64,000 nucleotides of DNA from Candidatus Sumerlaeaceae bacterium. GTDB taxonomy: Bacteria; Sumerlaeota; Sumerlaeia; Sumerlaeales; Sumerlaeaceae. Numbering within the stretch: position 1 is the stretch's first letter; each line of letters starts with the position of its first letter. The stretch lies in assembly GCA_049968255.1 (NCBI GenBank), contig JBMFRB010000006.1, forward strand, positions 135,800-199,799. Direction: 5' to 3'. The position numbers and the translations under genes are program-made. The notes under the pieces are model-generated. The model had not been told where the DNA came from. It did no database searches and saw only the letters and a list, made by a program, of their open reading frames with translations. Below, piece after piece: positions 3,370-38,471 of this stretch.

Positions 3370-4176
3370 GTGAAGGCGACCGATGTGAACTTCTTCGCTT
3401 GGTTGCTGAGCGGCCCTGTTGTGCCAGGGCTACTCATCATCGTGATTTATTTGGCGAAATGTATCAATGTGCTTAACGAGTACGAACGGGGCGTGGTGTT
3501 CCGCCTTGGGCGGTTGCTGCCGCAACCCAAGGGGCCGGGACTCGTGCTGATTTTTTGGCCAATCGATCGTATGGTGCGAGTGAGTCTTCGGATTGTGACT
3601 TTAGATGTGCCGCCGCAAGACATCATCACACGTGATAATGTTTCGGTGCATGTCAACGCGGTGATCTACTTCCAGGTCATAGATCCGGCGAAGGCGATCA
3701 TTTCGGTGGAAGATTATCTTTTTGCCACCTCGCAAATGGCGCAAACAACCCTGCGAAGCGTTCTCGGTCAGGTGGAATTAGATGACTTGCTTGCCGAAAG
3801 AGAAAAATTGAACATAGAACTTCAGGGGATCCTCGATCGGCAAACGGACGCATGGGGCGTGAAAGTGACTGCTGTCGAGATTAAGAAGGTGGACCTGCCT
3901 CAGGAAATGCAACGCGCAATGGCGCGGCAAGCGGAGGCGGAACGTGAGCGGCGTGCGAAAGTCATCAGCGCCGAAGGAGAATATCAAGCTGCGGAGAAAC
4001 TGGTGGCCGCGGCCGATATGATGTCGGCCCATCCGATGGCCATGCAAATGCGCTACCTGCAAACGCTCGTGGAAATTAGCGCCGAGAAAAGCTCGACGAT
4101 TGTCTTCCCATTCCCCATTGAGATGCTGCGCACGTTCGGATTGGAGAAGCCTAATCCACCAAAACAGCAGAGTTGA
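3370..4176 (+). CDS. SPFH/band 7 stomatin-like (slipin) protein
   Basis: [53 protein letters not shown] start downstream of AAGGAG. Confidence 0.93.
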
Positions 4177-4209
4177 CAGCGGATAATCGGTGCCACAACC
4201 GTCAGCCTT

Positions 4210-4725
4210 ATGACGATGGAAAAGGATTCGCCCTCGAAGGCTCGCGATGTTGTGGTGCGCCGGGCGATGCCCGCGGACGCGGCGACGATGTTGCGTCTCA
4301 TTCGGGCACTTGCCGAGTACGAGAAACTCGATCCGCCGGACAAAGGGGCAGAAGAACGGCTTGTCAGGGATGCCTTTTGCGAGAAGCCACGATTCGAGGT
4401 GTGGCTGGCAGAGGTGGGTGCCCAAGCCGCAGGCTATGCTTTTATTCTCGAGACTTACTCGACATTTCTGGCACGCCCCACACTCTACATCGAGGACATT
4501 TTCGTGTTGCCTGAGTATCGCGGTTCGGGGGTGGGGCACACGCTCTTTCGCAAATGCGTGGAGCTGGCCAAAGAACGAGGCTGCGGGCGTATCGAGTGGG
4601 TAACGCTCGATTGGAACGTGACAGCACAGAGCTTCTTTAAGCGTTATGGCGCCCAGCACCTTGCTGAGTGGTACTTTTTCCGACTGACGGCGGACAAATT
4701 CGACGAGATCCTGAAACGCCCCTGA
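4210..4725 (+). CDS. GNAT N-acetyltransferase (diamine/SSAT-like)
   Basis: IRALAEYEK, YSTF...LYIEDIFVLPEYRGSGVG, W.TLDWN..A..F. Confidence 0.88.
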   Translation: MTMEKDSPSKARDVVVRRAMPADAATMLRLIRALAEYEKLDPPDKGAEERLVRDAFCEKPRFEVWLAEVGAQAAGYAFILETYSTFLARPTLYIEDIFVLPEYRGSGVGHTLFRKCVELAKERGCGRIEWVTLDWNVTAQSFFKRYGAQHLAEWYFFRLTADKFDEILKRP

Positions 4726-4734
4726 GCGAGGAGC

Positions 4735-4941
4735 CTAGCAGCCCCCGCCAACGATCGTGATGATTTCAATGGCATCGCCGTCGTGGAGCGGTGTGCTTTC
4801 GTGCTCAGCACGGCGAATGACGTCGCCATTGAGCATGACCGCCACCTGATCGCGCTGGATGCCAAGCGCCTTGAGCAGCTCGATGATGTTCGAGACGTTG
4901 TCAAAGCTCTGAGTTTTTCCGTTTACTGTAAGAGAAATCAT
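4735..4941 (-). CDS. thiS: Sulfur carrier protein ThiS
   Basis: MISLTVNGK...VAVMLNGDVI...LHDGDAIEIITIVGGGC. Start at 4941 with GGAG RBS. Confidence 0.85.
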   Translation of the reverse strand: MISLTVNGKTQSFDNVSNIIELLKALGIQRDQVAVMLNGDVIRRAEHESTPLHDGDAIEIITIVGGGC

Positions 4942-5256
4942 GTTGCTCTCCGCGGTCATTTCGGTGTCAATAGTATCGGTTGCGCCGAAGGTGCATTCAC
5001 TCCTGAAGGAATCGGCTGCCCCGCTCTCAAGGGTTTTGTGACTTTTTATTGACAATGAGTGTTCGGGCCGTTAGCAACAATCCGACAATTCAGGAATTTT
5101 AGGAATTCTAGCGGTTATTTTTGCGATCACGATAAGAAGAGAACGGATCCAGAAACGCAGAGGCGGCTGGATAGGCTGATGCGAGAACCGATGCTGATCG
5201 GGCCGGCGGTAGGCTCAGCCGGTGGAAAATGTGGACTGCGGAGGTAGTGGCTGCGA

Positions 5257-21450: not shown

Positions 21451-22540
21451 GAGGCCTGAAAAATCCGAGCTCTCCTGGAAAAGAGCTTTTCTGCTCTCAA
21501 CCATAATGCTCCTCGTATCATAATCCGGCAAAGTGCATACTCTGTGAGTGGAGAAGCACATGAGCCTCTTGTTCTCCAAGCCGGTTTCAACGCGCCCTCG
21601 CATGCTCTCGCATTTTCGACGGAAACCGCAAGCTGAGCCGACCAGTCGAGATGCCCGGCGGCCAACAGGTTCGGAATGAAAGCGCCCGACAAATTTAAGA
21701 GCTGAAATCATTTTTCGTCTGGCCGATGGCCATGAGACGTATCGAGTGCTAGCGTAAGATTTTGCGCAGGCCGGGAATCGCTGTTGCTAAACGAAGACAT
21801 GTTCTGAAACAAATCAGACTCAAGGTTCGACGAAGATTGCGATGGACCAACGCAAGGAAGTTTTGACCCTAGGCGCCGAAGCGGGATTCCTTTCCGCGCT
21901 AGCTTCCACTCCCCTAGCCTGGGCTTCTGCAGGATTAACATCCGCGGAGAAACCTGTTGTCAGCTGCATCAAGGCGAAAGACCGAAATGCACAAACTTCC
22001 CCAAAGAAGTTTGAGAAGCTCGCGGCGACGAAAAAGCAGCAAGCGCAAAGTCCAAGTTCGCCAAAGGCACGACGGCGGCAATGAAGTTTCTACTCGTCCC
22101 GCTGAGAGTCCCTTGAAGGTCGGCGAGGGCTTCCTGATTTAGCCCCCAAATGTCCGTGTGACAGACATCTATTATCAATGTAGTTATGGAGAGACAACCT
22201 TGCTGTAAAGAAGCGAATAGCCGTGCCCGCCCCCTGAGCCGCTGAAGCAAAAGTGGAGTTTGCCAAAGCGTAACCAGCGATCCATAGGCCCCTTTGACCG
22301 ATGAGCTTATTCTTAACTGGCGGGATTGCGCTGAAGTCCAGAGCGCGTCGCAAAAGAGCTTGCGCAATTTGAATGAGTAGAGGCAGGGACCCAGCGAGGC
22401 TTGACACGCTAGGCGCATCGCCACGATAAATTGCGACGGTGCCGGACACGAAGGCTGACATTGGGGTTATGGGCGCATCGGGGCCGAAGACTGCCGCCCA
22501 CCTCTCTACGTTTCCAGAGGCAACTACAGTCAGTAGGGGT

Positions 22541-24124
22541 ATGCGCACCTCTTTGGCGCATGCAACGCTTTGGCTGGCTGTCCTGGTGGCTTATGCTCCA
22601 GTTCTAACCGGGGCTCAACACATCTGGGACGATGAAGCGTTTCTGGGAAATCCATTGTTGCTGAGCCTGAGCGGACTTTTTCGCGTGTGGTTTGACCCTC
22701 GCTCCAACACGTTAGAAGAACATTATTGGCCCGTCACATACACGGTGGCTTATCTCCTTCGCACGGTCTGGGGCTCAAGTCCTGGGGCTTTTCACATCGT
22801 GAACGTTTTGATCCACGCGGGGAACGCATCGCTGGTGTATTCGATCGGCCGGCGGGTGCTTGCTCATCACGCCTTCTGGGGCGCCCTGCTGTTTGCCCTG
22901 CATCCCCTACAGGTCGAATCTGTTGCGTGGATTGTTGAGCTCAAAAACGTTCTGTCGTTTTTCTTGGCCGCGAGTTCATTTCTTGTGTTTCTCTCGCTCG
23001 AAAAGAAACAGACGGGGAAACGGTTGGGCATGGCACTTGGGTGGTCGCTGTTTGTCGCGGCCATGCTTTCAAAAAGCGCTGTGATCACGTGGCCACTTTG
23101 TGCCGGTCTCATCTTGTGGTGTTTGCCCCCCGGCCTTACGAAAACGCGAATCCAGTTCCTGGCGGGTCTGATAGTCGCCGCACTGGCAGTGGGTGCATTT
23201 GATATGTGGTACGCTTCTGCTAGCAAAAGCGCCGTTCCGCGCTTTTCCATCGCGGAGCGTGTCGCTATCTCAGGGACTGGGCTGCTGCATTACTTGCGCA
23301 CCTGGCTGTGGCCCAGCAGCCTCTGCGCAACTTATGCGAAATGGCCCCTAACGCCGCTCGCTTTGACGGTAGCGGTTTGTGTGGGGATCGTGATGGCAGG
23401 GGCTGTCGTTGCGCTCGCACGAAGAGCGTTTCATTCACGAGCGGCGCGGATGGCTTTGGCTTGGCTGGTAGGAACGCTCGCGCTGCTGGCCCCAACGCTT
23501 GGCCTGATTCCGTTCAGCTATCAGCGGCAGTCCTTTGTAGCCGATCGCTTCGCTTATCACGCCAGCGCCATCTTTCTGCCGGGTGTGGTCGCCATCATGG
23601 CTGCTGCATGGGCACGGATGCGATTACCGGCGCGAATAGGCAAAATTGCACTCGTAGTGATCTCTTGTGCGTTGGCCATTTCAACCTTGCACCGCGCTGC
23701 TCTTTATCGAGACGTGGAGTATCTCGCGATCGACACCGCTGAAAAGAATCCTCACGCATGGACGGCTCGCTACTATTTGGGCGATGCCCTCGCACGGCGT
23801 GGTGATTTCGAGAAGGCAATGCGCGAATTTTCGAGCGTGTTCTGGGGCACGCTAGAGACTTTTGGGCGCGACGAAGAGAATCTGCTCCAGCAGCAACTTA
23901 CAAAAGCTGACGCGCAGGATCTGAGAACCCATTATAATCGGGGCCTTTTAGCCGCCCGACGCGGTCGCACCGCCGAAGCGAAAGCCTGTTTTGAGAAAGC
24001 AAGCATTTTGCCCTTGCTACGCGGCCAGGCTGTTCTGGCTATCGCAGCCATTGAACTAAAAAATGGAGAAACCACCAACGCGCTGCGGCGGATACGCGAG
24101 CTCTACGGAGGCGCAACAAGATGA
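22541..24124 (+). CDS. TMTC-like GT-C membrane protein with C-terminal TPRs (putative protein O-mannosyltransferase homolog)
   Basis: IWDDE, HYWPVT, H..N..IH..N, LFALHPLQVESVAWI.E.K, ADRF.Y, TPR tail. Start uncertain (22439, 22469 or 22541). Confidence 0.8.
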   Translation: MRTSLAHATLWLAVLVAYAPVLTGAQHIWDDEAFLGNPLLLSLSGLFRVWFDPRSNTLEEHYWPVTYTVAYLLRTVWGSSPGAFHIVNVLIHAGNASLVYSIGRRVLAHHAFWGALLFALHPLQVESVAWIVELKNVLSFFLAASSFLVFLSLEKKQTGKRLGMALGWSLFVAAMLSKSAVITWPLCAGLILWCLPPGLTKTRIQFLAGLIVAALAVGAFDMWYASASKSAVPRFSIAERVAISGTGLLHYLRTWLWPSSLCATYAKWPLTPLALTVAVCVGIVMAGAVVALARRAFHSRAARMALAWLVGTLALLAPTLGLIPFSYQRQSFVADRFAYHASAIFLPGVVAIMAAAWARMRLPARIGKIALVVISCALAISTLHRAALYRDVEYLAIDTAEKNPHAWTARYYLGDALARRGDFEKAMREFSSVFWGTLETFGRDEENLLQQQLTKADAQDLRTHYNRGLLAARRGRTAEAKACFEKASILPLLRGQAVLAIAAIELKNGETTNALRRIRELYGGATR

Positions 24125-25770
24125 GCATGCCAAGCCCCGCGACCTCGCCCAGGCACAGTCCGCTGTTGAGCGCGTTGCTCCGGTGGGGACCACCGCTGAC
24201 CCTCGTCATTCTCGCGATAGCGGCTCACGCAGTGTCGCTGGGCGGGGGCTTTTTCTGGGATGATTACAGCTTGGCACAGGGAGACCTCCTCAATCGCCCG
24301 CTTGCAGAGTTCTGGAAATATCCGCCCACAATAGCACTTGAAGAACATTATTGGCCAGTGACTTATACAGGATTCTGGCTGCTGCATAAGCTTAGCGGCC
24401 TTGATCCGTTCACGTTTCGTTTCGCGAACATTTTACTCCATGCGGCTAATGTGCTTTTGGTGTTTCTGTTGCTGCGCCAACTGCGAATTGGCAGTGCGTG
24501 GTTGGGTGCGGCGCTTTTTGCTGTGCATCCCGTACACGTGGAGAGTGTGGCTTGGATTATCGAGCTAAAGGATGTCTTGTCTGCTTTCTGGCTACTGCTG
24601 GCAACGGTCGCATTCGTTCAACAGAACTCTTTGCAATCGCCTGCGTTGCGTGCAGTTGGCTTGATAGCGGCGGGCACCCTTTATGTGTTAGCAGTGTGGA
24701 GCAAGACGGTGGCGATTGGGTGGCCAGTTGCCATGGGAGTTCTCTTGGCTGCATACCTGCCTGACCGAATCAAAAAACATGACATTGCCTTGACGGTCTA
24801 CGTTTTCCTCGGAGCGATTCTGCTGTGGCTCGACTTGAGGGTGACCGCTCGTGTGGCTCATGCCACGATTTCACTCTCAGCAGTCGAACGCCTCGAACTG
24901 GTAGGACGGACTTTTTGGTGGTATGTGGCTAAGCTCATCTGGCCCGTTCCTCTGCTTGCCCTTTATCCGCGTTGGCAACTCGGCGGCAGTAGTTTTACGC
25001 ACTTTTGGCCGAGCGTGGCCTTGTTCGCGGCAGCAGGCGGTGCGACAATTTGCTGGTTTCGTTTGCCAAGCGCTCGCCCGCTCGTGGCATGGCTGGTATG
25101 GTTCGTCATTTTTCTTGGGCCGACATTAGGAATCATCCCCCACAGCTTCATGGTTCATTCCTTCGTTGCGGACCGTTACCTCTATCTGGCGTCCATGGCA
25201 CCGTGTGCTTTGGCGGCGATGGGATACACATATGTTTCAAAACGCTACGCTGGCCAGCGCTTACTAAGGTTGAAACTCGCTGGGTTTGCAGCAGTTGTTC
25301 TCACAATTTATTTTTCGCTTAGCATGATGCATTCGGCACTTTATGCGCAACCGACGAAACTTCTCCGACACACACTGGCGCATAATCCCAACGCCGCCAA
25401 TCTCCTGGTGATGCTGGGTGCGACGCTTGCGCAACGCGGTGAGCTAGAGGAGTCTGCCCAGTGTTTCCGTAAAGCGAAGACGTTGGCTCCCGACGAACTC
25501 GCGGCGCGAGCCAATCTTGCGGTGATAAGCTGGCAGCTGGGTGACGTAGAAACCGCGCTGGAGGAGACTTCGGCTGTTCTTGGTGTTTTGCCCCGTCACT
25601 CATTGAGCTGGTCCGTGTATGCGGCTGCTCTGGCGGCAAAAGGCAAGACCGAGGAAGCCCAACGAGCGGCACGCCGTGCCCTCGAGCTCAATCCGGAGCA
25701 ACAGTTGGCGCGCAAGGTCCTGCAAGGCGAAATCACAACTGCACCTTTGCCGAAACGGCGCAAAAACTAG
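24121..25770 (+). CDS. Second TMTC-like GT-C/TPR protein (tandem paralog)
   Basis: FWDDY, EEHYWPVTY, LFAVHPVHVESVAWIIELKD, VADRYLYL, TPRs; ATGA-coupled to the previous gene. Confidence 0.82.
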   Translation: MSMPSPATSPRHSPLLSALLRWGPPLTLVILAIAAHAVSLGGGFFWDDYSLAQGDLLNRPLAEFWKYPPTIALEEHYWPVTYTGFWLLHKLSGLDPFTFRFANILLHAANVLLVFLLLRQLRIGSAWLGAALFAVHPVHVESVAWIIELKDVLSAFWLLLATVAFVQQNSLQSPALRAVGLIAAGTLYVLAVWSKTVAIGWPVAMGVLLAAYLPDRIKKHDIALTVYVFLGAILLWLDLRVTARVAHATISLSAVERLELVGRTFWWYVAKLIWPVPLLALYPRWQLGGSSFTHFWPSVALFAAAGGATICWFRLPSARPLVAWLVWFVIFLGPTLGIIPHSFMVHSFVADRYLYLASMAPCALAAMGYTYVSKRYAGQRLLRLKLAGFAAVVLTIYFSLSMMHSALYAQPTKLLRHTLAHNPNAANLLVMLGATLAQRGELEESAQCFRKAKTLAPDELAARANLAVISWQLGDVETALEETSAVLGVLPRHSLSWSVYAAALAAKGKTEEAQRAARRALELNPEQQLARKVLQGEITTAPLPKRRKN

Positions 25771-30851: not shown

Positions 30852-31166
30852 ATGCTTGCTGAGTTCTCAATCGCTCCCCTATTGGGCCATGAAGAACATC
30901 TATCTGGGCCGGTGGCCGAAATGCTGAAGATTGTGGACGAGAGCGGCCTGCCATACGAACTTCACGCCATGGGCACAATCATCGAAGGCGAATGGAATGA
31001 AGTCATGCCCGTGATTGAGAAGTGCTATCGCTACATGAGCGAACGCTTCCCACGGGTGAGTGTGATCATCAAAATTGACGATGCACGGGGCAGGACGGGA
31101 CGGTTGCGCGGCAAGGTTGAGAGTGTGGAGCGGCTCGTCGGCAAGGCGCTACGTCGGGCGTCGTAG
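30852..31166 (+). CDS. MTH1187/YqgV family thiamine-binding protein
   Basis: MLAEFSIAP, SGLPY.L.AMGTIIEGEW.EV, RVS..IKID. Confidence 0.85.
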   Translation: MLAEFSIAPLLGHEEHLSGPVAEMLKIVDESGLPYELHAMGTIIEGEWNEVMPVIEKCYRYMSERFPRVSVIIKIDDARGRTGRLRGKVESVERLVGKALRRAS

Positions 31167-31308
31167 CCGGTGCTGTCGTTGCCAGCTTTGGAGGGACGAG
31201 ATGGGTCCCCTTCTGTGCCCGAGCGCAATTCTCTTTGACTAAGAGAAAGAAAAGTCTCCAGCTTGTGTTGAAGACGGAATGATCTCAGAAGAGAGGCGGT
31301 CGCCTGCA

Positions 31309-31596
31309 ATGACAAAACAGGAAGTAGCAAATCTGTTATGCAAGAAAACCGGTTTGAGCCAGAAACAGGGGCGGGAGGCCGTGGAAATTTTTCTTTCCGC
31401 GATTAAGGATGCGCTCAAGGCAGGTGAAAAAGTTTCGCTTGTGGATTTCGGCACCTTCCAACTCAAGGCGCGGCGAGCTCGTCGCGCACGCAAGCCCGGA
31501 ACAGGCGAGCAGTTTGTCGTGCCCCCCAAAGCGGTGGTCATTTTCAAGCCTGGAAGAAAGTTCCGGGAACTGGTGGCAAAAACGACAAGCTCGTAA
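31309..31596 (+). CDS. hup: HU family DNA-binding protein
   Basis: MTKQE....L..KTGLS, GEKVSLVDFGTF, R.AR.P.TGE, FKPGR. Confidence 0.92.
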   Translation: MTKQEVANLLCKKTGLSQKQGREAVEIFLSAIKDALKAGEKVSLVDFGTFQLKARRARRARKPGTGEQFVVPPKAVVIFKPGRKFRELVAKTTSS

Positions 31597-31776
31597 AGGA
31601 TCTTGCTTGCTGCTGGCCCGACGAAGAGCGCCGGCAAGTTGCTACGACTGGCACACATTTTTAGGGGGCTAAGCCAGGAGCCTTTCTTCGTCGTCAGCGA
31701 GAAATAATGATGAATCCGCAGAGGAAAATTGGCAGCCCCTTTTCGCTCTGCAACTTTACGGCGTGTCAAGGTTCCA

Positions 31777-32727
31777 TCATTTTCCTGTTCGTGAGGCCCG
31801 ACGACCTTTTGCTTTCCCTGGCCCCTGCGCCCTGTTTGTCCCGGGAAGAAGCGACAAAACTTGTGCGACGATCGACTCCGGAAGCACCGACCGCTGAGCG
31901 ACAATGTAGTAATGCTGACGCACATCTTCGATGACGTGAACGTGCCGCACGTGATAGAGACGCTCCAGCTGTTTGGCTTCGACATAGGGCATGACAAAGA
32001 AGGCTCCCTTGGAGGTAGCAAGCGCTTTGAGTAATGCGCTGTTGTCGATTTCGCCAATGACGTCCGGAGGCGGGGAGATGGTATTGAGCCAGCGCTCGAC
32101 CTTTTGCCGCAGCGGGCAGGATGGCCCTGGAAGCAAAAACGGGCGACCAGCCAGCGCTTGGAGGCCACCGCTTCGAACCCTGTCTGCTAGGCGCACTGGG
32201 GCATAGAGGGCCAGAGGAGAGGCTTCGAGGACTATCCATTGGAACTGTCGCGAGTAGCTGCGCAGAGCCGCCGTGTCCGCCAGCACAAGGCTTATTTCGC
32301 CGTTCATGAGCTTCGCGAGTAATTGCTCAAGGGCCATACTCACTGCTAGAAGACGTAAATCTGCGCGAAGCTTCAGGACCCGCTCGAAAAAACGAAGAGC
32401 GACAAGGTGGGGGAAATTTTCTACAACCCCGACACGCAGCACGGGGGCGCTGGAATGCCTGCCGCTGAGCGTGTCAACAAATTCCTGCGCCGTGGAGAAG
32501 ATTCTCTCCGCATAGGCGAAGGCAGTGCGGCCGGCTTCTGTGAGCACAAGACGGCGCCCCGCTCGCACGAAGAGCTGCGTTCCCAAGTGTTCTTCGAATT
32601 GGCGAAGGTGTGCTGAAAGGGTGGGTTGGCTCAGCCGTAGGCGTTTTGCGGCCGCCACGACCGATCCTTCGAGCGCAATCATCCAGAAACAGAAGAGGTG
32701 GTGAAAATTCAGCGCGGTTAGATCCAT
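31777..32727 (-). CDS. LysR family regulator, NhaR-like
   Basis: LNFHHLFCFWMIA.EGSVVAAA.RL.LSQPTLS and YAERIF resemble the NhaR N-terminus; divergent from the DUF4914-like gene. Confidence 0.88.
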   Translation of the reverse strand: MDLTALNFHHLFCFWMIALEGSVVAAAKRLRLSQPTLSAHLRQFEEHLGTQLFVRAGRRLVLTEAGRTAFAYAERIFSTAQEFVDTLSGRHSSAPVLRVGVVENFPHLVALRFFERVLKLRADLRLLAVSMALEQLLAKLMNGEISLVLADTAALRSYSRQFQWIVLEASPLALYAPVRLADRVRSGGLQALAGRPFLLPGPSCPLRQKVERWLNTISPPPDVIGEIDNSALLKALATSKGAFFVMPYVEAKQLERLYHVRHVHVIEDVRQHYYIVAQRSVLPESIVAQVLSLLPGTNRAQGPGKAKGRRASRTGK

Positions 32728-32762
32728 AGGTTTTCCTTATATCTGTTATAAACATTATTTAT
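32726..32762. promoter_or_regulatory. Putative LysR operator (two T-N11-A boxes)
   Basis: ATAGGTTTTCCTTAT (32726-32740) and the palindromic ATAAACATTATTTAT (32748-32762) sit in the AT-rich divergent spacer. Confidence 0.6.
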
Positions 32763-32817
32763 GAAATTCTATTGAAGGTCTGAAGATAGTTTGACAATCA
32801 TACGGAAGGTGACAACA

Positions 32818-34737
32818 ATGAGCGAAATTCAGAAAAACGGCCACGCCGGGAAATCATCGACGGTTGAGCACCGCGAAATTCCTATCCCAGATGTCCCAGA
32901 CGAAATTAGCCGGGTCCTTCGGGCTGCGCCGATCGTGCGTTACGCGAGCACTGTGCAGGAGCTGATTGAGCTCGCCGTGCCGCAGACGACATGCGATGGC
33001 TGGTTTGAAGTCGGCTACGAAGTGGAGGGCAAAGGTCGCCTCGTGGAGGCACACGTATGCCGGGTGCGCAACGGGATCTCCGTGAACTATCTCGAACCTT
33101 ACATGCGGCGGCGTGACCCCGATTGCATGTTCGTTGGCGACGACGGCCCAACCGATCAACCGCGCTTCCATGAACGATTTGGCAAACCTTTTGGGCCTGT
33201 CCGCGAGGAAACTTTTGCATGGCTGGCCAAGCAGGACCTCGCTGTTTTTGTGTTCCGATCGGGCAAGGAGCCCAAAAGTTTTGATGCGGTGGCGATTTGC
33301 CCGGCTAATGCTGGTTTTTTCGCTCTGGGTCTGGCGATGATTCAGGGCATTCTTCCGCTCGACGACCTGCCTGAGGATTTTTCGCCGACGGCCTTTATTT
33401 TGGTGGCACCAACCTTCCGTCACACGCATTTCAACGGACGCCAAGTTGTCGTGCATAACCGCCTGCCGCAGCGTCACGAGCTGTTTAGCTATAATCTCTA
33501 CCTTGGCCCGAGCGCGAAGAAGGGTGTTTACGGCATGCTTTTGAGCCGGGGCGAGAGCGAGGGATGGGTTACTGCGCATTGCTCGACGGTTCGGGTGGTC
33601 ACGCCTTACGACAATCACGTGGTGTTCATGCACGAAGGAGCCAGCGGCGGCGGTAAATCCGAAATGCTGCAATATCCGCACCGCGAGAGCGACGGACGCC
33701 TGCTCATTGGACGCAATCTCGTGACGGGCGAGGCTCGCTATCTGACGCTGCCGCGCGGCTGCGCGCTCCAACCGGTGACCGATGACATGGCGCTTTGCCA
33801 TCGCACCCTTGATGCGCATGCACGCAAATTGCGGCTACGCGATGCCGAGCAGGCATGGTTTGTCCGCGTGAATCATATCCGCCGCTACGGCACTGATCCT
33901 ACGCTGGAGGAATTGACGATCCATCCTAAGGCCCCGCTGCTATTTTTGAGTATTGACGCAAGGCCCGGAGCGACCGCTTTGCTTTGGGAACATATTGAAG
34001 ATGCGCCGGGCAAGCCGTGCCCAAACCCGCGCGTGATTCTTCCGCGTTCGATTGTGCCGGGAATCGTTGACGACGATGTGACGGTGGACGTGCGTAGTTT
34101 CGGTGTGCGAACGCCACCGTGCACTGCTGAGAATCCCACCTATGGGATCCTCGGTCTGTTTCACATTCTCCCACCCGCGCTTGCATGGCTGTGGCGGCTA
34201 GTGTCGCCGCGCGGACACGACAATCCGAGCATTGTGGGCACAGGGCAGCTTGAGAGTGAGGGCGTGGGAAGCTTTTGGCCTTTCGCGCCCGGTCAGCGAG
34301 TGGAACTCGCAAATTTGCTTTTGCGCCAGATCATGGCCACGCCGGACACTTTGTTCGTTCTGATTCCTAATCAGCACATTGGTGCTTGGAAAGTAGGGTT
34401 CATGCCGCAGTGGCTTTGCCGCGAATATCTAGCGCGCCGTGGCTATGCACCGTTCCGACCTGAGCAGATTGCGCCTTCGCGGTGCTCGCTCCTGGGCTAC
34501 AGTCTGCGAAATATTCACATTGAAGGAACTTCGATTAGCTCGTGGTTTCTCAATGTCGAGTCGCAACCCGAAGTTGGCACGAACGGCTACGATGCAGGCG
34601 CAAAGATTCTCGAAGACTTTTTCAGGCAAGAACTTCGCAAATACCGTGTGCCGCATCTGGATCAACTCGGGCACGAGATTATCCAATGCTGCTTGGATGG
34701 TGGGACAGTCGAGGATTACCGCAAATTCACAGCATGA
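32818..34737 (+). CDS. DUF4914-like protein with PEP-carboxykinase-type motifs
   Basis: YLGPSAKKGVYG, AHCS, P-loop GASGGGKSE, VTDDMA, CPNPRVILP. Family name is from recall. Confidence 0.8.
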   Translation: MSEIQKNGHAGKSSTVEHREIPIPDVPDEISRVLRAAPIVRYASTVQELIELAVPQTTCDGWFEVGYEVEGKGRLVEAHVCRVRNGISVNYLEPYMRRRDPDCMFVGDDGPTDQPRFHERFGKPFGPVREETFAWLAKQDLAVFVFRSGKEPKSFDAVAICPANAGFFALGLAMIQGILPLDDLPEDFSPTAFILVAPTFRHTHFNGRQVVVHNRLPQRHELFSYNLYLGPSAKKGVYGMLLSRGESEGWVTAHCSTVRVVTPYDNHVVFMHEGASGGGKSEMLQYPHRESDGRLLIGRNLVTGEARYLTLPRGCALQPVTDDMALCHRTLDAHARKLRLRDAEQAWFVRVNHIRRYGTDPTLEELTIHPKAPLLFLSIDARPGATALLWEHIEDAPGKPCPNPRVILPRSIVPGIVDDDVTVDVRSFGVRTPPCTAENPTYGILGLFHILPPALAWLWRLVSPRGHDNPSIVGTGQLESEGVGSFWPFAPGQRVELANLLLRQIMATPDTLFVLIPNQHIGAWKVGFMPQWLCREYLARRGYAPFRPEQIAPSRCSLLGYSLRNIHIEGTSISSWFLNVESQPEVGTNGYDAGAKILEDFFRQELRKYRVPHLDQLGHEIIQCCLDGGTVEDYRKFTA

Positions 34738-35014
34738 CTGCGGTATAGGCCGACCGTCATGCATTCTATAGCCCAGCGCGATAAAGGGCGTGTGACCATT
34801 CACAGAAGGCCGGCGACGGGGTCACAATTCTCGGGCGCCCCATCAGGCATGGCGACCGCGGGAATGGCGCGCTTGTGCACTGGTGGGGGTGGCAACCCAC
34901 TCGCACTCGCTGAGCGAGTCTGGCTCTCTTGCCCAACAGACACTTCTTGGCAGCGGGCTGGGAAGATCGCAATGAGTCAAGGTTTTGAGAACGCTTGAGT
35001 CGCAAAGGAAGCTC

Positions 35015-35980
35015 ATGATGTTTTCGACAGCTTTGCTCAACAATATGCTTTCCCCCATGGTGCTTGCTTTTTGGCTCGGAGTGGGAGCCACCCTGTTGCG
35101 CACCAATTTTCGCGTGCCGCAGCCGGTGTACACGGCGCTTTCCATTTATTTGCTTTTCGCCATCGGAATTAAAGGCGGTGGCGAGCTACGCCACGCGGGT
35201 TTGTTGGCCATCGTCTTGCCAGTGTTGGCCACGCTGGCTCTTGGCCTTATCACGCCTTTGACGGCGTACGCTGTCGCGCGGCGATTTGTGCAACTCGACA
35301 GACCTAATGCTGGTGCTTTAGCGGCTCACTATGGCTCGGTGTCGGCGGTTACGTTTCTTGCTGCTCAGCAATTCTGCAGAAGTCTTCGCGTGCCGTGCGA
35401 AGGCTTCATGCCTTCGCTCATTGCGCTACTCGAGGTGCCAGCCATCATTGTGGCACTGGCGCTGGTTCAAATTAGAGAGGGGCGGGACAGTTCGTTGCGA
35501 GATGTCATCCACGAGGTGGTGACGGGGCCAAGTGTGCTGCTCATGGTGAGTGGCATTCTTATTGGATATATCGCTGGCCCGGAGCGCTTGAAACCGGTGG
35601 AACCGTTTTTTGTGAGCGGATTCCCTGGTGCTCTCGTGCTCTTTCTTTTTGAGCTCGGGATGGTGGCTGCGGAGGAGCTTCCGGTTATGTTGCGGCACGG
35701 CCTCAAGCTTGGCCTCTTCGCGGTGCTGGTACCTCTTTTTCATGGCGTTCTGGGCGTGGCTTTCGGAAAAGTTGCAGGACTCTCGGAAGGCGGCTGTGGG
35801 GTGTTGGGAACGATGGCAGCGAGCGCTTCTTACATCGCCGCGCCAGCGGCTGTCCGGATTGCACTGCCGGAGGCTAATCCTAGCCTTTATTTGGGTTGCT
35901 CGTTGGGGATTACGTTTCCTTTCAACCTGACGCTGGGTATTCCATTATTTTTTGGATTTTCTCATATGTTATTTAGTTAG
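35015..35980 (+). CDS. sbtA: Sodium-dependent bicarbonate transporter, SbtA family
   Basis: LSIYLLFAIGIKGG, AAHYGSVSAVTF, LEVPAII, ASASYIAAPAAVR.ALPEANP, LGITFPFN. Confidence 0.9.
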   Translation: MMFSTALLNNMLSPMVLAFWLGVGATLLRTNFRVPQPVYTALSIYLLFAIGIKGGGELRHAGLLAIVLPVLATLALGLITPLTAYAVARRFVQLDRPNAGALAAHYGSVSAVTFLAAQQFCRSLRVPCEGFMPSLIALLEVPAIIVALALVQIREGRDSSLRDVIHEVVTGPSVLLMVSGILIGYIAGPERLKPVEPFFVSGFPGALVLFLFELGMVAAEELPVMLRHGLKLGLFAVLVPLFHGVLGVAFGKVAGLSEGGCGVLGTMAASASYIAAPAAVRIALPEANPSLYLGCSLGITFPFNLTLGIPLFFGFSHMLFS

Positions 35981-36005
35981 AAAAGAACTCAAGAGAGCTC
36001 TTTTC
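35980..36005 (+). terminator. Possible hairpin/terminator after sbtA
   Basis: GAAAAGAACTC-AAGA-GAGCTCTTTTC imperfect stem. Confidence 0.35.
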
Positions 36006-36094
36006 AACACCTATGCTCGAAAACCGGTGTGGTGTATAGCTAGTTCTGCATAAGCTTAAAGTTTGTGCAGGTTAGCAAGATGGTGGAGCGTCGT

Positions 36095-37300
36095 ATGATG
36101 AGGGGAATTGTGGTTGTCGGAGCAGGCGTCCTCGTCCAGCTTGCGATGGGGGCTCTCTACGCTTGGAGCACGTTTGGGGCGGCTCTGCAGCAGCATTACG
36201 GCCTCGAACCAGGAAAAGCGGCGTCAATTGTGGGCGTCGCGATTCTCACCTTCACACTCGTCATGATTGCAGGGGGGCGCGGTGTGGCTCGGTTTGGGCC
36301 ACGCGTCATGACCTTATGCGGAGCTGCACTGTTTTCGATTGGGTATCTCGTGAGCTCTTTCGCAGGCGGCCGCTACGCTGTGCTTGTTTTAGGTGCGGGA
36401 GTACTGGTCGGCGCTGGTATTGGTTGTACCTACACGGCGCCCATCACCGCGAGCCTGGCATGGTTCCCACAACGCAAAGGCCTTATCACTGGTCTTTCTG
36501 TGGCGGGATTCGGTGCTGGGGCATTGCTGTTGTCGCAATGGGCTGAATGGCTACTCAAGCAGCAGTGGGATGTTCATCATGTCTTGTGGATGATTGCCGT
36601 CGTCAATGGAGGAGCTGCATTCCTTGGTGGCTTATTTCTGCTAACACCCGCGCAGCCAGTGGCGGCCGCTGGGTCCGAGATAGAGTCAAAGGTCATTCGT
36701 CTTCGCGAGGTGTTTTCTAGACAGCCGTTTTGGGCGGGAGTCGTCGGCATGTTCAGCGCGACATTTGGCGGACTTTTGGTGATTGGAAACCTAAAGTCTT
36801 TAGGCCTATCCTACGGATTGGCCGCGGACGTCGCCGCGACAGCTATCGGCATTTTTGCAATTGGCAACGCGGGCGGCCGCCTCGTGTGGGGTGGTGTGTA
36901 CGACAGACTGGGGCGCTGGGCGCTGCCTTTGGCACTCGTACTCCAGGGAATTGTGTTGGCGGGGTTGGCTCATGCACAGGGTGCGGCGTTCTTTATTCCG
37001 CTCGCTGCCACATGCGGTTTTCTGTTCGGTTCCGCTTTTGTTCTCTATGCAGCGGACCTTGCGAGTGAATACGGACGACACGGGATTGCGATCATTTATC
37101 CATGGGTTTTTCTCGCCTACGGTATCGCAGGCTTGCTGGGGCCGTTCGTTGGTGGCAAACTTTACGAAATGACGGGGTCTTACGTCTACGCTTGCTATAT
37201 TGCCACGATGGTTTCTGTGGGAGGAGCGCTAATTTACTTGTTATTGCGCGGTATGCTGACTCACTTGGGGGGTGGTGCGGCTGCCAGGGGCCGAGACTGA
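36095..37300 (+). CDS. MFS transporter, oxalate:formate antiporter (OFA)/monocarboxylate family
   Basis: GALYAWS.F, GAGIG..Y..P....WFP.RKGL.TG..VAGFG.G, N..GR..WG...D; about 12 TM segments. Confidence 0.85.
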   Translation: MMRGIVVVGAGVLVQLAMGALYAWSTFGAALQQHYGLEPGKAASIVGVAILTFTLVMIAGGRGVARFGPRVMTLCGAALFSIGYLVSSFAGGRYAVLVLGAGVLVGAGIGCTYTAPITASLAWFPQRKGLITGLSVAGFGAGALLLSQWAEWLLKQQWDVHHVLWMIAVVNGGAAFLGGLFLLTPAQPVAAAGSEIESKVIRLREVFSRQPFWAGVVGMFSATFGGLLVIGNLKSLGLSYGLAADVAATAIGIFAIGNAGGRLVWGGVYDRLGRWALPLALVLQGIVLAGLAHAQGAAFFIPLAATCGFLFGSAFVLYAADLASEYGRHGIAIIYPWVFLAYGIAGLLGPFVGGKLYEMTGSYVYACYIATMVSVGGALIYLLLRGMLTHLGGGAAARGRD

Positions 37301-37334
37301 TTGATCGCGCGACGGGCGGGATGTGCCGTGTGCC

Positions 37335-38471
37335 TTATCTTCCGAAGAACGTTCGCACTGACTCGACGACGTAATCGACGTGCTCGCTTGGCAACTGCGG
37401 ATAGAGCGGCAGAGAGAGTGTGGTCAGCGCAACGTGCTCTGCAACAGGGAATTGTCCTTTTTGAAAACCGCGGTGGGCGTAGGCTGGCTGAAGATGGAGC
37501 GGAATTGGGTAATGAATGCCCGTCTCGATGCCGCGTGAAGCGAGAAATTTCTGCAGAGCGTCGCGCGCTTCGGTTTGTATTGCGAACAAATGCCGCGCGT
37601 GGATTCCTTCGTCGGTCAATTTTTGAAAGGTGAGGGGGAGATCCGCGAGCCCTTGTTCGTAGCGTGAACAAATCGTGTTGCGTCGCTCGACTGCCTTGGC
37701 CAATCCTTTCAGGCGCACGGACAACACAGCAGCCTGCAGGGTGTCGAGACGGTAGTTGAAACCCTCGCAGAGGTGGAGATATTTATCGCGCCGGCCATGA
37801 TTGACGAGACGGCGCACGTAGTCGGCGGTATGTTCATCGTCGGTGATGATTGCTCCTGCGTCGCCAAATGCACCAAGATTCTTTGCGGGAAAAAAACTGA
37901 AACAGCCGAGGCGTCCGAGTGTTCCTGCATGCTGTAAAGGGGCACCGGCGCGCGTGCGCAGAAAACCGCCATGTGCTTGAGCGCAGTCCTCGATGAGGAC
38001 GAGGTTATGGCGGCGGCAGATTTCGGCAATCTCATTGAGGCCGCTCGGGTTGCCGTGGAGATGAACGAAGATGACGGCGCGTGTGCGCGGCGAGATGGCA
38101 GCTTCCACAGCGGCGGGGTCGAGGTTGAGTGTTGCAGGGTTGATATCGGCGAAAACGACGTGTGCCCCTGCGTGTCCAATGGCTTCAGCCGTGGCGATGA
38201 AGGTCATGGGTGTGGTGATGACTTCGTCGCCTTGGCCAATGCCAACCGCGAGAAGGGCGAGATGAAGCGCCGAGGTCCCATTGGCGCACCCAACGGCGAA
38301 ACGGGTACCACAGAAGCGGGCGAATTCGCTCTCAAAATCATGGACAGCGCGGCCACCGATGAAATCTCCCTTTTCTAGCACGCGAGCGATTGCGGCCAAC
38401 GTGGCTGGCGCGGTTTCGTGGTAGGTAGCCAAAATGTCATTGAACCGAACCTTCGTTTCGCCGCAAGCCAT
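37335..38471 (-). CDS. DegT/DnrJ/EryC1/StrS sugar aminotransferase
   Basis: FIGG..V..FE, NGTSAL, TFIATAEAI, IEDCAQAHG, FSFFPAKNLGAFGDAG, N.RLDTLQAA, IHYP.PLH.QPAY. Confidence 0.93.
   Translation of the reverse strand: MACGETKVRFNDILATYHETAPATLAAIARVLEKGDFIGGRAVHDFESEFARFCGTRFAVGCANGTSALHLALLAVGIGQGDEVITTPMTFIATAEAIGHAGAHVVFADINPATLNLDPAAVEAAISPRTRAVIFVHLHGNPSGLNEIAEICRRHNLVLIEDCAQAHGGFLRTRAGAPLQHAGTLGRLGCFSFFPAKNLGAFGDAGAIITDDEHTADYVRRLVNHGRRDKYLHLCEGFNYRLDTLQAAVLSVRLKGLAKAVERRNTICSRYEQGLADLPLTFQKLTDEGIHARHLFAIQTEARDALQKFLASRGIETGIHYPIPLHLQPAYAHRGFQKGQFPVAEHVALTTLSLPLYPQLPSEHVDYVVESVRTFFGR

Follow-up and report, generated by a model that had tools for sequence, protein, structure and literature searches.

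The domain-of-unknown-function family DUF4914 is probably a fourth branch of the phosphoenolpyruvate carboxykinase superfamily

Phosphoenolpyruvate (PEP) carboxykinases (PEPCKs) are recognised in three classes only, namely the ATP-, GTP- and pyrophosphate (PPi)-dependent ones, and use CO2 rather than bicarbonate, according to PMC8100219. The closest described relatives of the gene product considered here are the ATP-dependent class (PckA, EC 4.1.1.49, PF01293; structures 2pc9 and 1aq2/6at4), the GTP-dependent class (EC 4.1.1.32, PF00821; 2fah, 3dt4 and 4r43) and PPi-PEPCK, or PEP carboxytransphosphorylase (EC 4.1.1.38; 6k31 and 8e1u), followed by HprK/P (1jb1 and 1ko7), which acts on a protein substrate, has a PEPCK-type P-loop domain and is without the N-terminal PEPCK domain and the oxaloacetate/CO2 site. 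The gene lies in a 64,000-nt stretch of contig JBMFRB010000006.1 (the window) from a Candidatus Sumerlaeaceae bacterium of the phylum Sumerlaeota, and its product, P0001, belongs to DUF4914 (PF16260), a widespread family already catalogued in Pfam, only as a domain of unknown function. Comparison of sequences, profiles and predicted structure suggests that DUF4914 is probably an uncharacterised fourth branch of the PEPCK superfamily and an unrecognised CO2-handling enzyme of that type.

Family membership, predicted fold and active site

The gene is a single open frame whose ATG is preceded just 5′ by GGAAGG, read from the sequence as a ribosome-binding site (Table 1). PF16260 spans residues 26–637 of P0001 (E = 0; 1016.2 bits versus the 25.7-bit cut-off) and 1–611 of its 612 profile positions are matched, so that P0001 is a full-length member above the gathering score. 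No family was assigned by NCBIfam, and none of its HprK models matched; in Pfam at E ≤ 10, PF01293 (PEPCK_ATP), PF00821 (PEPCK_GTP) and the HprK models gave no match either, and the sole additional one, to DUF6626 (E = 0.036), is a chance match. Searching the PDB by sequence returned 0 matches with the single sequence and only two chance matches (E = 0.42 and 2.2) with a profile. A literature search, with supplements and subscription journals outside its reach, found no publication mentioning DUF4914 or PF16260 and, supplementary tables again excepted, none on a PEPCK-like protein of unknown function.

Homologues of P0001 fill at least 8000 clusters at 90% identity in a word-indexed search, with ∼65% identity across phyla; the best 120 of these clusters are 63–90% identical and derive from Sumerlaeota, Planctomycetota, Verrucomicrobiota, Omnitrophota, Hydrogenedentota and Deltaproteobacteria. 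When 1.84 billion representatives were scanned exhaustively with HMMER, 655 matched, and only about 10 of these are full-length divergent forms, of 29–42% identity. Of 14 control genomes, that of Thermotoga maritima alone gave a DUF4914 match. Domain fusions were not found among proteins of 1120–3195 aa, which is weak evidence. Two homologues have unusual lengths: P0123 (831 aa) bears a 215-aa N-terminal extension without a Pfam match, and P0153 (722 aa) joins a C-terminal DUF4914 part to a major facilitator superfamily (MFS) transporter, probably because gene calling ran on from a DUF4914 gene into the MFS gene next to it.

The AlphaFold2 model, based on 36 aligned sequences (mean predicted local distance difference test score, pLDDT, 87.1; predicted template modelling score 0.87), gives P0001 a two-domain PEPCK fold along the whole chain. 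Foldseek returned 118 PDB matches at E ≤ 0.001, and all among the matches listed are PEPCKs, including the GTP-type 2qzy (E = 1e-21), the ATP-type 1aq2 and the PPi-type 8e1u/6k31. By VIA-align the model superimposes on the Thermus thermophilus ATP-PEPCK with Z 29.3 (485 of 511 residues, root-mean-square deviation 3.0), on Escherichia coli PckA with Z 27–28.6, on the PPi-type 6k31 with Z 27.3 (591 residues aligned) and on GTP-type enzymes with Z 25–26, the best being 26.1 to 2fah. A scan of 48,161 representative chains, independent of Foldseek, placed the three PEPCK classes at ranks 1–3 (Z 27.8, 25.5 and 25.0); HprK/P reached Z 6.5–6.8 over ∼145 residues of the C-terminal domain only, and all remaining chains, apart from the one at rank 4, stayed at or below Z 4.6. 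In the ESM Atlas, a feature search with the DUF4914 clusters excluded found PEPCK-named clusters nearest, at a score of 0.91.

Two by-products of these searches concern other proteins. Rank 4 of the chain scan is an accessory subunit of respiratory complex I of Euglena gracilis (PDB 8j9h, chain E2; Z 15.6, 334 residues), and its scoring far above HprK/P suggests a PEPCK-derived fold in Euglena complex I. The nearest ESM Atlas clusters, named ‘phosphoenolpyruvate carboxykinase family protein’, are of 447–586 aa, come from Bacillota and Chloroflexota and have no Pfam family in common, so more unclassified PEPCK-like groups may exist.

A preliminary description of the stretch, made from the letters alone, had picked out seven PEPCK-like motifs in order; translation and coordinate arithmetic place all seven in the one 639-aa frame (Table 1). 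The ATP- and GTP-type motifs that it had named for comparison also recur in real sequences: PckA of the same genome reads GRSPKD, YAGEIKKS, MHCSAN, GLSGTGKT, IGDDEHGW, NFEGGCYAK and ENTRCAYP, and GTP-PEPCKs from three genomes read GKKCF, EHMLIL, FPSACGKT, GDDIAW and HPNARF. Across 18 DUF4914 members with identities down to 29% (alignment A3), only 24 columns are invariant, and 14 of them fall inside these motifs, as marked in Table 1; further invariant residues, E77, R201 and R535, are specific to the family. The ordered pattern KK..H[CAS][ST]..G..G.GK[ST]..DD(..N.R) occurred in two of the 10,387 stop-to-stop open reading frames (ORFs; minimum length 100 aa) of the 3.1-Mb genome, namely P0001 and the canonical PckA, and had 0 matches in 20 residue-shuffled copies of all ORFs; the spacing ranges were set with both proteins known, and so these counts show rarity and are no blind test.

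Table 1. Features of the DUF4914 locus, in window coordinates; residue numbers are those of P0001, and conservation refers to alignment A3
Feature	Position	Strand	Evidence or conservation
LysR-family regulator, 316 aa, likely regulator of the DUF4914 gene	31777..32727	-	Pfam HTH_1 and LysR_substrate; divergent
AT-rich divergent promoter region, 90 nt, putative, with T-N11-A dyad TAAACATTATTTA at 32749-32761	32728..32817	.	read from sequence
DUF4914 gene, product P0001, 639 aa	32818..34737	+	single open frame; Pfam PF16260, AlphaFold2 model, PEPCK fold matches, hhalign
RRRDPD (R97-D102), candidate oxaloacetate/PEP-binding Arg, equivalent to GRSP (ATP type) and CRSDP (GTP type)	33106..33123	+	R97, R99 invariant (18/18)
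YLGPSAKK (Y228-K235), CO2-site Tyr and Lys-Lys pair; K235 candidate Mn2+ ligand	33499..33522	+	Y228, K234, K235 invariant; align with Y and KK of PckA YAGEIKK
H254 (AHCS), candidate Mn2+ ligand	33577..33579	+	17/18 members; aligns with His of MHCS and of EHML
P-loop GASGGGKSE (G274-E282), predicted phosphoryl-donor site	33637..33663	+	S276, G277, K280, E282 invariant; aligns with GLSGTGKT and SACGKT
D322-D323 (TDDMA), candidate Mn2+ ligand Asp pair	33781..33786	+	invariant; aligns with DD of IGDDEH and GDDIAW
DAEQAWFVR (D342-R350), equivalent of NFEGGCYAK	33841..33867	+	E344 invariant; D342, F348, R350 at least 90% conserved
NPRVILP (N403-P409), N-x-R-x3-P, candidate substrate-binding Asn/Arg (N403-R405 at 34024-34032)	34024..34044	+	N403, R405 invariant
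Sbt_1 permease (SbtA-like, Na+-dependent bicarbonate transporter superfamily), likely start ATG 35015	34985..35980	+	Pfam PF05982, E = 7.6e-107
MFS transporter, oxalate/formate and L-lactate (monocarboxylate) type	36065..37300	+	Pfam MFS_1

Profile comparison by hhalign connected the family with both nucleotide-dependent classes. The A3 profile matched that of 20 ATP-PEPCKs at a probability of 97.5% (E = 6.7e-12, 465 columns) and that of three GTP-PEPCKs at 89.5% (E = 1.9e-6), and the control comparison of the ATP with the GTP profile gave 0.6%, figures to be compared between classes with caution as all the profiles are shallow. The DUF4914 profile is thus nearer to each class than these are to one another and bridges them, which makes the family useful for reconstructing PEPCK evolution. 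The homology to PckA emerged only once divergent DUF4914 members had been added: a shallow 36-sequence alignment (A1; effective number of sequences, Neff, 2.0) found nothing against 17 Sumerlaeota PckAs (probability <1%).

Residue by residue, hhalign sets Y228 against the Tyr of PckA YAGEIKK, K234/K235 against the KK, H254 against the His of MHCS, K280-S281 against GKT, D322/D323 against the DD, E344 against the Glu of NFEGG and R350 against the Lys of CYAK, and in the GTP profile N403/R405/P409 against the N/R/P of HPNARFTAP; the invariant R535 stands opposite the Arg of the PckA ‘YTR’ segment. The Mn2+ site of E. coli PckA (K213/H232/D269) is matched in the alignment by K235, H254 and D323. 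Further ATP-PEPCK positions are presumably numbered Y207 (the CO2-site Tyr), T255 and D268. PMC13147460 lists R65, K212, K213, H232, K254, D269, K288 and R333 as diagnostic of ATP-PEPCK, and K335, K336, H356, D659 and D660 for the PPi-PEPCK 6k31, a KK, H and DD set as in DUF4914; in the first list, K212, K213, H232, K254, D269 and K288 have their counterparts among the DUF4914 residues just aligned. H254 follows K235 by 19 residues, equal to the spacing of K213 and H232 in that ATP-PEPCK list, and the Asp pair lies 43 residues past K280 versus 15 in the ATP-type list, with a family-specific 28-residue insertion between P-loop and DD; the Lys at K288 is replaced by Arg (R350).

Against ATP-PEPCK, the family shares the two-domain fold (Z 27–29, 485–507 residues aligned) and the elements Y, KK, HCS, G-x-S-G-x-G-K-[ST], DD, E...[KR] and N-x-R-x3-P; it differs in being ∼100 residues longer, at 12–15% identity, and in reading DDMA rather than DDEH, PNPR rather than ENTR and Arg at the K288 equivalent. 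With GTP-PEPCK it has in common the fold (Z 25–26, 515–535 residues aligned), DD-x-A, P-N-x-R-x3-P, the R-x-D-P of the N-terminal domain and a length of ∼600–640 aa, again at 12–15% identity, but it carries HCS for EHML and G-A-S-G-G-G-K-S for F-P-S-A-C-G-K-T. N-x-R-x3-P is thereby common to DUF4914, the ATP type (ENTRCAYP) and the GTP type (HPNARFTAP). PPi-PEPCK aligns over the most residues (573–591) at 16–17% identity, yet its sequence similarity to DUF4914 was not detectable in the PDB search (E ≤ 10, single sequence or profile), its chains have 1109–1126 residues versus 639 with no match in class length, and the full Walker-type P-loop retained by DUF4914 is a further difference.

These results bear out the other proposals of the preliminary description, namely a divergent PEPCK-fold enzyme that appears to retain the Lys/His/Asp metal ligands, mixes ATP- and GTP-type features and is much shorter than the PPi-PEPCKs. 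The predicted structure is PEPCK-like over its whole length, and the fold check that it had suggested, AlphaFold followed by a structure search against PckA and GTP-PEPCK, put PEPCKs at the top in Foldseek, in VIA-align and in the chain scan; hhalign adds homology to both classes. The candidate ligands align with those of PEPCK and are conserved across the family, HCS follows the ATP type and DD.A and PN.R...P the GTP type, and the protein has about half the length of the solved PPi-type chains. Taken together, the aligned sequences indicate that the DUF4914 protein is a member of the PEPCK superfamily that has the catalytic set of PEPCK and falls outside each of the three known classes.

The locus and its counterparts in other genomes

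In the window the DUF4914 gene is preceded by a divergent LysR-type gene and followed by genes for a bicarbonate-type permease and an MFS transporter (Table 1). The intervening promoter region contains a T-N11-A dyad, which we take to be the form of a LysR box. The best NCBIfam match of the regulator is NhaR, at 142.5 bits under a 219-bit cut-off, and those of the MFS protein are SfMCT (237.7 bits) and the OFA subfamily (152.2 bits), both likewise under cut-off. No RNA leader was seen at the locus: Rfam gave 0 matches at E ≤ 1 in window 31000–38000, and the gap between DUF4914 and Sbt_1 (34738–35016) folds no better than its shuffles (z 0.13) and is not conserved relative to the corresponding gap of another Sumerlaeota locus, L002.

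Neighbours were surveyed over 80 sources, i.e. 79 of 80 fetched loci (L numbers) plus the window, by one-seed phmmer on all ORFs in ∼6 kb of flank; a Pfam scan covered 147 of 289 flanking ORFs, three very long ORFs and a batch of 139 being left out, and L074, in which the DUF4914 ORF did not cluster, is outside the counts, with a PurK and a PurE-cluster ORF just downstream there. The full arrangement of the window, LysR / DUF4914 - Sbt_1 - MFS, is repeated in L105 of the same genus, and LysR, DUF4914 and MFS without Sbt_1 are found in the Sumerlaeota loci L002, L107 and L110. The divergent LysR-DUF4914 pairing recurs in L002, L105, L107 and L110, with the LysR gene ∼1.6 kb upstream in L109, and outside Sumerlaeota in L009 and L070; an MFS gene of the same type follows DUF4914 in L002, L017, L025, L105, L106, L107 and L110.

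By counts, a PocR/AraC-type regulator lies near DUF4914 in 27/80 sources (at most 300 nt away in 19, mostly in divergent orientation, with the PocR domain borne out by Pfam in 11) and a LysR regulator in 5/80. An OadA/5S-type oxaloacetate carboxyltransferase (HMGL-like plus PYC_OADA, ∼490 aa, with no biotinyl domain found) occurs in 8/80, PurE in 7/80, PurK in 2/80, β-carbonic anhydrase in 4/80, Sbt_1 in 4/80, MFS of the window type in 4/80, and pyruvate phosphate dikinase (PPDK) and bestrophin in 1/80 each; a double adenylate kinase was counted in 3/80. At least one of Sbt_1, β-carbonic anhydrase, PurE, PurK and the OadA/5S-type carboxyltransferase is present in 13/80 sources, and roughly 2/80 loci with CO2/bicarbonate genes might be expected by chance; many of the CO2-linked loci are related, so the figure of 13/80 overstates their independence. 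The arrangements of these genes differ among Sumerlaeota, Verrucomicrobiota and Planctomycetota, and several Verrucomicrobiota loci, many labelled Opitutaceae, have the order PocR-AraC / carboxyltransferase - DUF4914 - PurE - carbonic anhydrase.

Some recurrent arrangements are recorded here in their own right. PocR-AraC, the commonest neighbour, stands upstream of DUF4914 in L004, L005, L006, L007, L008, L010, L019, L034, L035, L037 and L039; the lineage of the window has LysR instead, so that many phyla seem to place the family under a dedicated regulator that responds to a ligand. An operon-like run of PocR-AraC / ∼490-aa carboxyltransferase (resembling transcarboxylase 5S or the OadA core) and DUF4914 is seen in L019, L021, L024, L034, L038 and L057, in several of which PurE and β-carbonic anhydrase come next. 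A 389-aa tandem double adenylate kinase lies downstream in L004 (8779–9945), L006 (7324–8490) and L019 (∼870 nt from DUF4914) and may bear on the nucleotide used by the DUF4914 enzyme. The possibility that DUF4914 substitutes for PurK in the PurE-linked loci was rejected, because PurK_C is present elsewhere in 3/5 such genomes.

Coexistence with canonical PEPCK and the likely function

The genome of the window carries a canonical ATP-PEPCK on the same contig (G000:C6:108990-110366, 732.5 bits), ∼58 kb upstream of the DUF4914 gene, and no GTP-PEPCK was found in it. Neither PEP carboxylase (Ppc), a PYC_OADA (pyruvate carboxylase-type) carboxyltransferase nor β-carbonic anhydrase (Pro_CA) was detected in this genome, which is 95.75% complete, so that their absence is not proven. 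Of 75 genomes from the phylum, 26 carry DUF4914 (14 of the 43 of high quality) and 38 carry PEPCK_ATP.

From the relationships described above, a CO2-linked carboxykinase is most likely the function of DUF4914. Such an enzyme would bind Mn2+ together with an Mg2+-phosphoryl donor at the P-loop and would turn PEP plus CO2 into oxaloacetate or the reverse, linking phosphoryl transfer to carboxylation or decarboxylation; ATP, GTP and PPi are possible donors, as is some other compound. In this genome, it would be induced by the divergent LysR regulator and work with the bicarbonate-type permease and the organic-acid MFS transporter, most likely as the CO2-fixing (anaplerotic, C4-forming) partner of PckA, since PckA is present and no PEP carboxylase, PYC-type carboxyltransferase or β-carbonic anhydrase was detected. 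Our preferred reading, at a probability of roughly one half, is that the enzyme fixes CO2 to form oxaloacetate and is controlled by LysR, because the neighbours belong to the CO2/bicarbonate-oxaloacetate node, PckA is at hand and another C3-carboxylating enzyme was not detected.

Several points weigh against this role. As to coexistence, PEPCK_ATP is present in 20 of the 26 DUF4914-bearing genomes of the phylum and PEPCK_GTP in five of the other six, the last of the 26 (G073, 58% complete) having been left out of the PEPCK_GTP search, and all five DUF4914 genomes taken from five other lineages have a canonical PEPCK as well (two ATP-type, three GTP-type); that a genome should keep two enzymes for one reaction calls for an explanation, and a difference in substrate would provide one. 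A complementarity with PEP carboxylase was considered and rejected, as that enzyme is found in 14/26 DUF4914-positive versus 16/49 DUF4914-negative genomes; within Sumerlaeaceae, Ppc is missing in 4/6 positive versus 2/7 negative genomes, which are too few and too related to count. As to the residues, the equivalent of PckA R65 aligns opposite R98, the invariant ones being R97 and R99, a register off by one, and the ATP-profile alignment runs five residues out of register at N403-R405, so that R405 stands opposite the motif Arg (the R333 equivalent) only in the GTP-profile alignment; confidence in the model is lowest at the P-loop (residues 276–278, pLDDT <50), and a meeting of K235, H254 and D323 at one site would follow from the aligned sequences. 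The anaplerotic direction is likewise one that we infer. As to the locus, the 277-nt gap between DUF4914 and Sbt_1 makes their co-transcription putative only, and the neighbourhood is variable across the survey, 67/80 sources having no CO2-linked gene in the fetched flank.

Overall, a canonical PEPCK is present in 30 of the 31 DUF4914-bearing genomes examined, within and beyond the phylum, which indicates that DUF4914 adds to canonical PEPCK and never replaces it. A more far-reaching form of the CO2-fixing role, which we put forward tentatively as a possibility, takes this further: DUF4914 would be a true fourth PEPCK class with its own phosphoryl donor or acceptor (e.g. PPi/Pi, polyphosphate or ADP/AMP), a dedicated CO2-fixing enzyme of an inorganic-carbon response that always stands alongside a canonical, gluconeogenic PEPCK. 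The donor would set its energetics apart from those of the ATP and GTP enzymes, the response would include the permease, carbonic anhydrase, PurE/PurK and the oxaloacetate carboxyltransferase, and its range would be thousands of genomes of Planctomycetota, Verrucomicrobiota, Chloroflexota, Sumerlaeota, Hydrogenedentota, Kiritimatiellia and Thermotoga.

The PEP-pyruvate-oxaloacetate node passes for completely described, with the three PEPCK classes of PMC8100219, and DUF4914 would make a fourth. Should the family prove to be a carboxykinase, an anaplerotic or CO2-fixing step is missing from the metabolic reconstructions of many phyla that are uncultivated and environmentally dominant, genomes like this one would gain a candidate enzyme for making C4 acids, and the link with bicarbonate permeases, carbonic anhydrase and PurE/PurK would point to a heterotrophic low-CO2 response that has barely been studied.

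A different substrate on the same fold, with the same metal and P-loop chemistry, is the strongest competitor, although we consider it rather unlikely: the enzyme would then phosphorylate, carboxylate or decarboxylate some other 2-oxo or enol acid, which the neighbouring MFS transporter possibly carries. It would explain the constant coexistence with canonical PEPCK (30/31 genomes), and it suits the frequent dedicated divergent regulators (PocR/AraC in 27/80, LysR in 5/80), which pathways induced by one particular compound typically have, the recurrence of a monocarboxylate/oxalate-formate-type MFS gene beside DUF4914 and the family-specific features of the protein, i.e. the 28-residue insertion and the invariant R201, E77 and R535. 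Coexistence alone is weak evidence, however, because PPi-PEPCK too is usually found beside a canonical PEPCK, which its host organisms mostly keep, according to PMC8100219. Moreover, all alignable residues that contact oxaloacetate, PEP or CO2 are invariant or nearly so, which is unexpected after a change of substrate, and the recurrent neighbours (oxaloacetate carboxyltransferase, carbonic anhydrase, the bicarbonate-type permease and one PPDK) belong to the PEP-pyruvate-oxaloacetate/CO2 node.

A plain second gluconeogenic, i.e. decarboxylating, PEPCK isoenzyme with coincidental CO2-related neighbours would agree with the full catalytic set, with the 67/80 sources whose variable fetched flanks show no CO2-linked neighbour and with the patchy distribution in the phylum (26/75 genomes). 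We regard it as improbable, since CO2-linked genes accompany 13/80 loci against the ∼2/80 roughly reckoned for chance, and do so in different arrangements across three phyla, and since PckA is already in the genome and, for the carboxylating direction, neither Ppc nor an enzyme of the Pyc or OadA type was detected there. An HprK/P-like protein kinase/phosphorylase or another regulatory P-loop protein without a metabolic role is very improbable: the P-loop form G-x-S-G-x-G-K-S-E, whose K-S-E ending we take to resemble HprK/P, and the C-terminal domain match of Z 6.5–6.8 are set against a correspondence of ∼145 of 639 residues versus 485–591 at Z 25–29 for PEPCK, the conserved N-terminal domain and oxaloacetate/CO2-site residues and the want of any HprK model match in Pfam (E up to 10) or NCBIfam.

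Minor observations were made at single loci. In a Planctomycetales locus, a bacterial microcompartment (BMC) shell protein and an RnfC-like flavoprotein are encoded near DUF4914 (L003:5156-5773 and 3739-5076), and the bestrophin-type anion channel and the pyruvate phosphate dikinase counted above are single-locus neighbours (L028:8171-9202 and L033:3221-6016, respectively). Elsewhere in the window (22439–25770, plus strand), two adjoining genes of ∼550 aa each encode a protein whose N-terminal part has no Pfam match and whose C-terminal part consists of tetratricopeptide (TPR) repeats.

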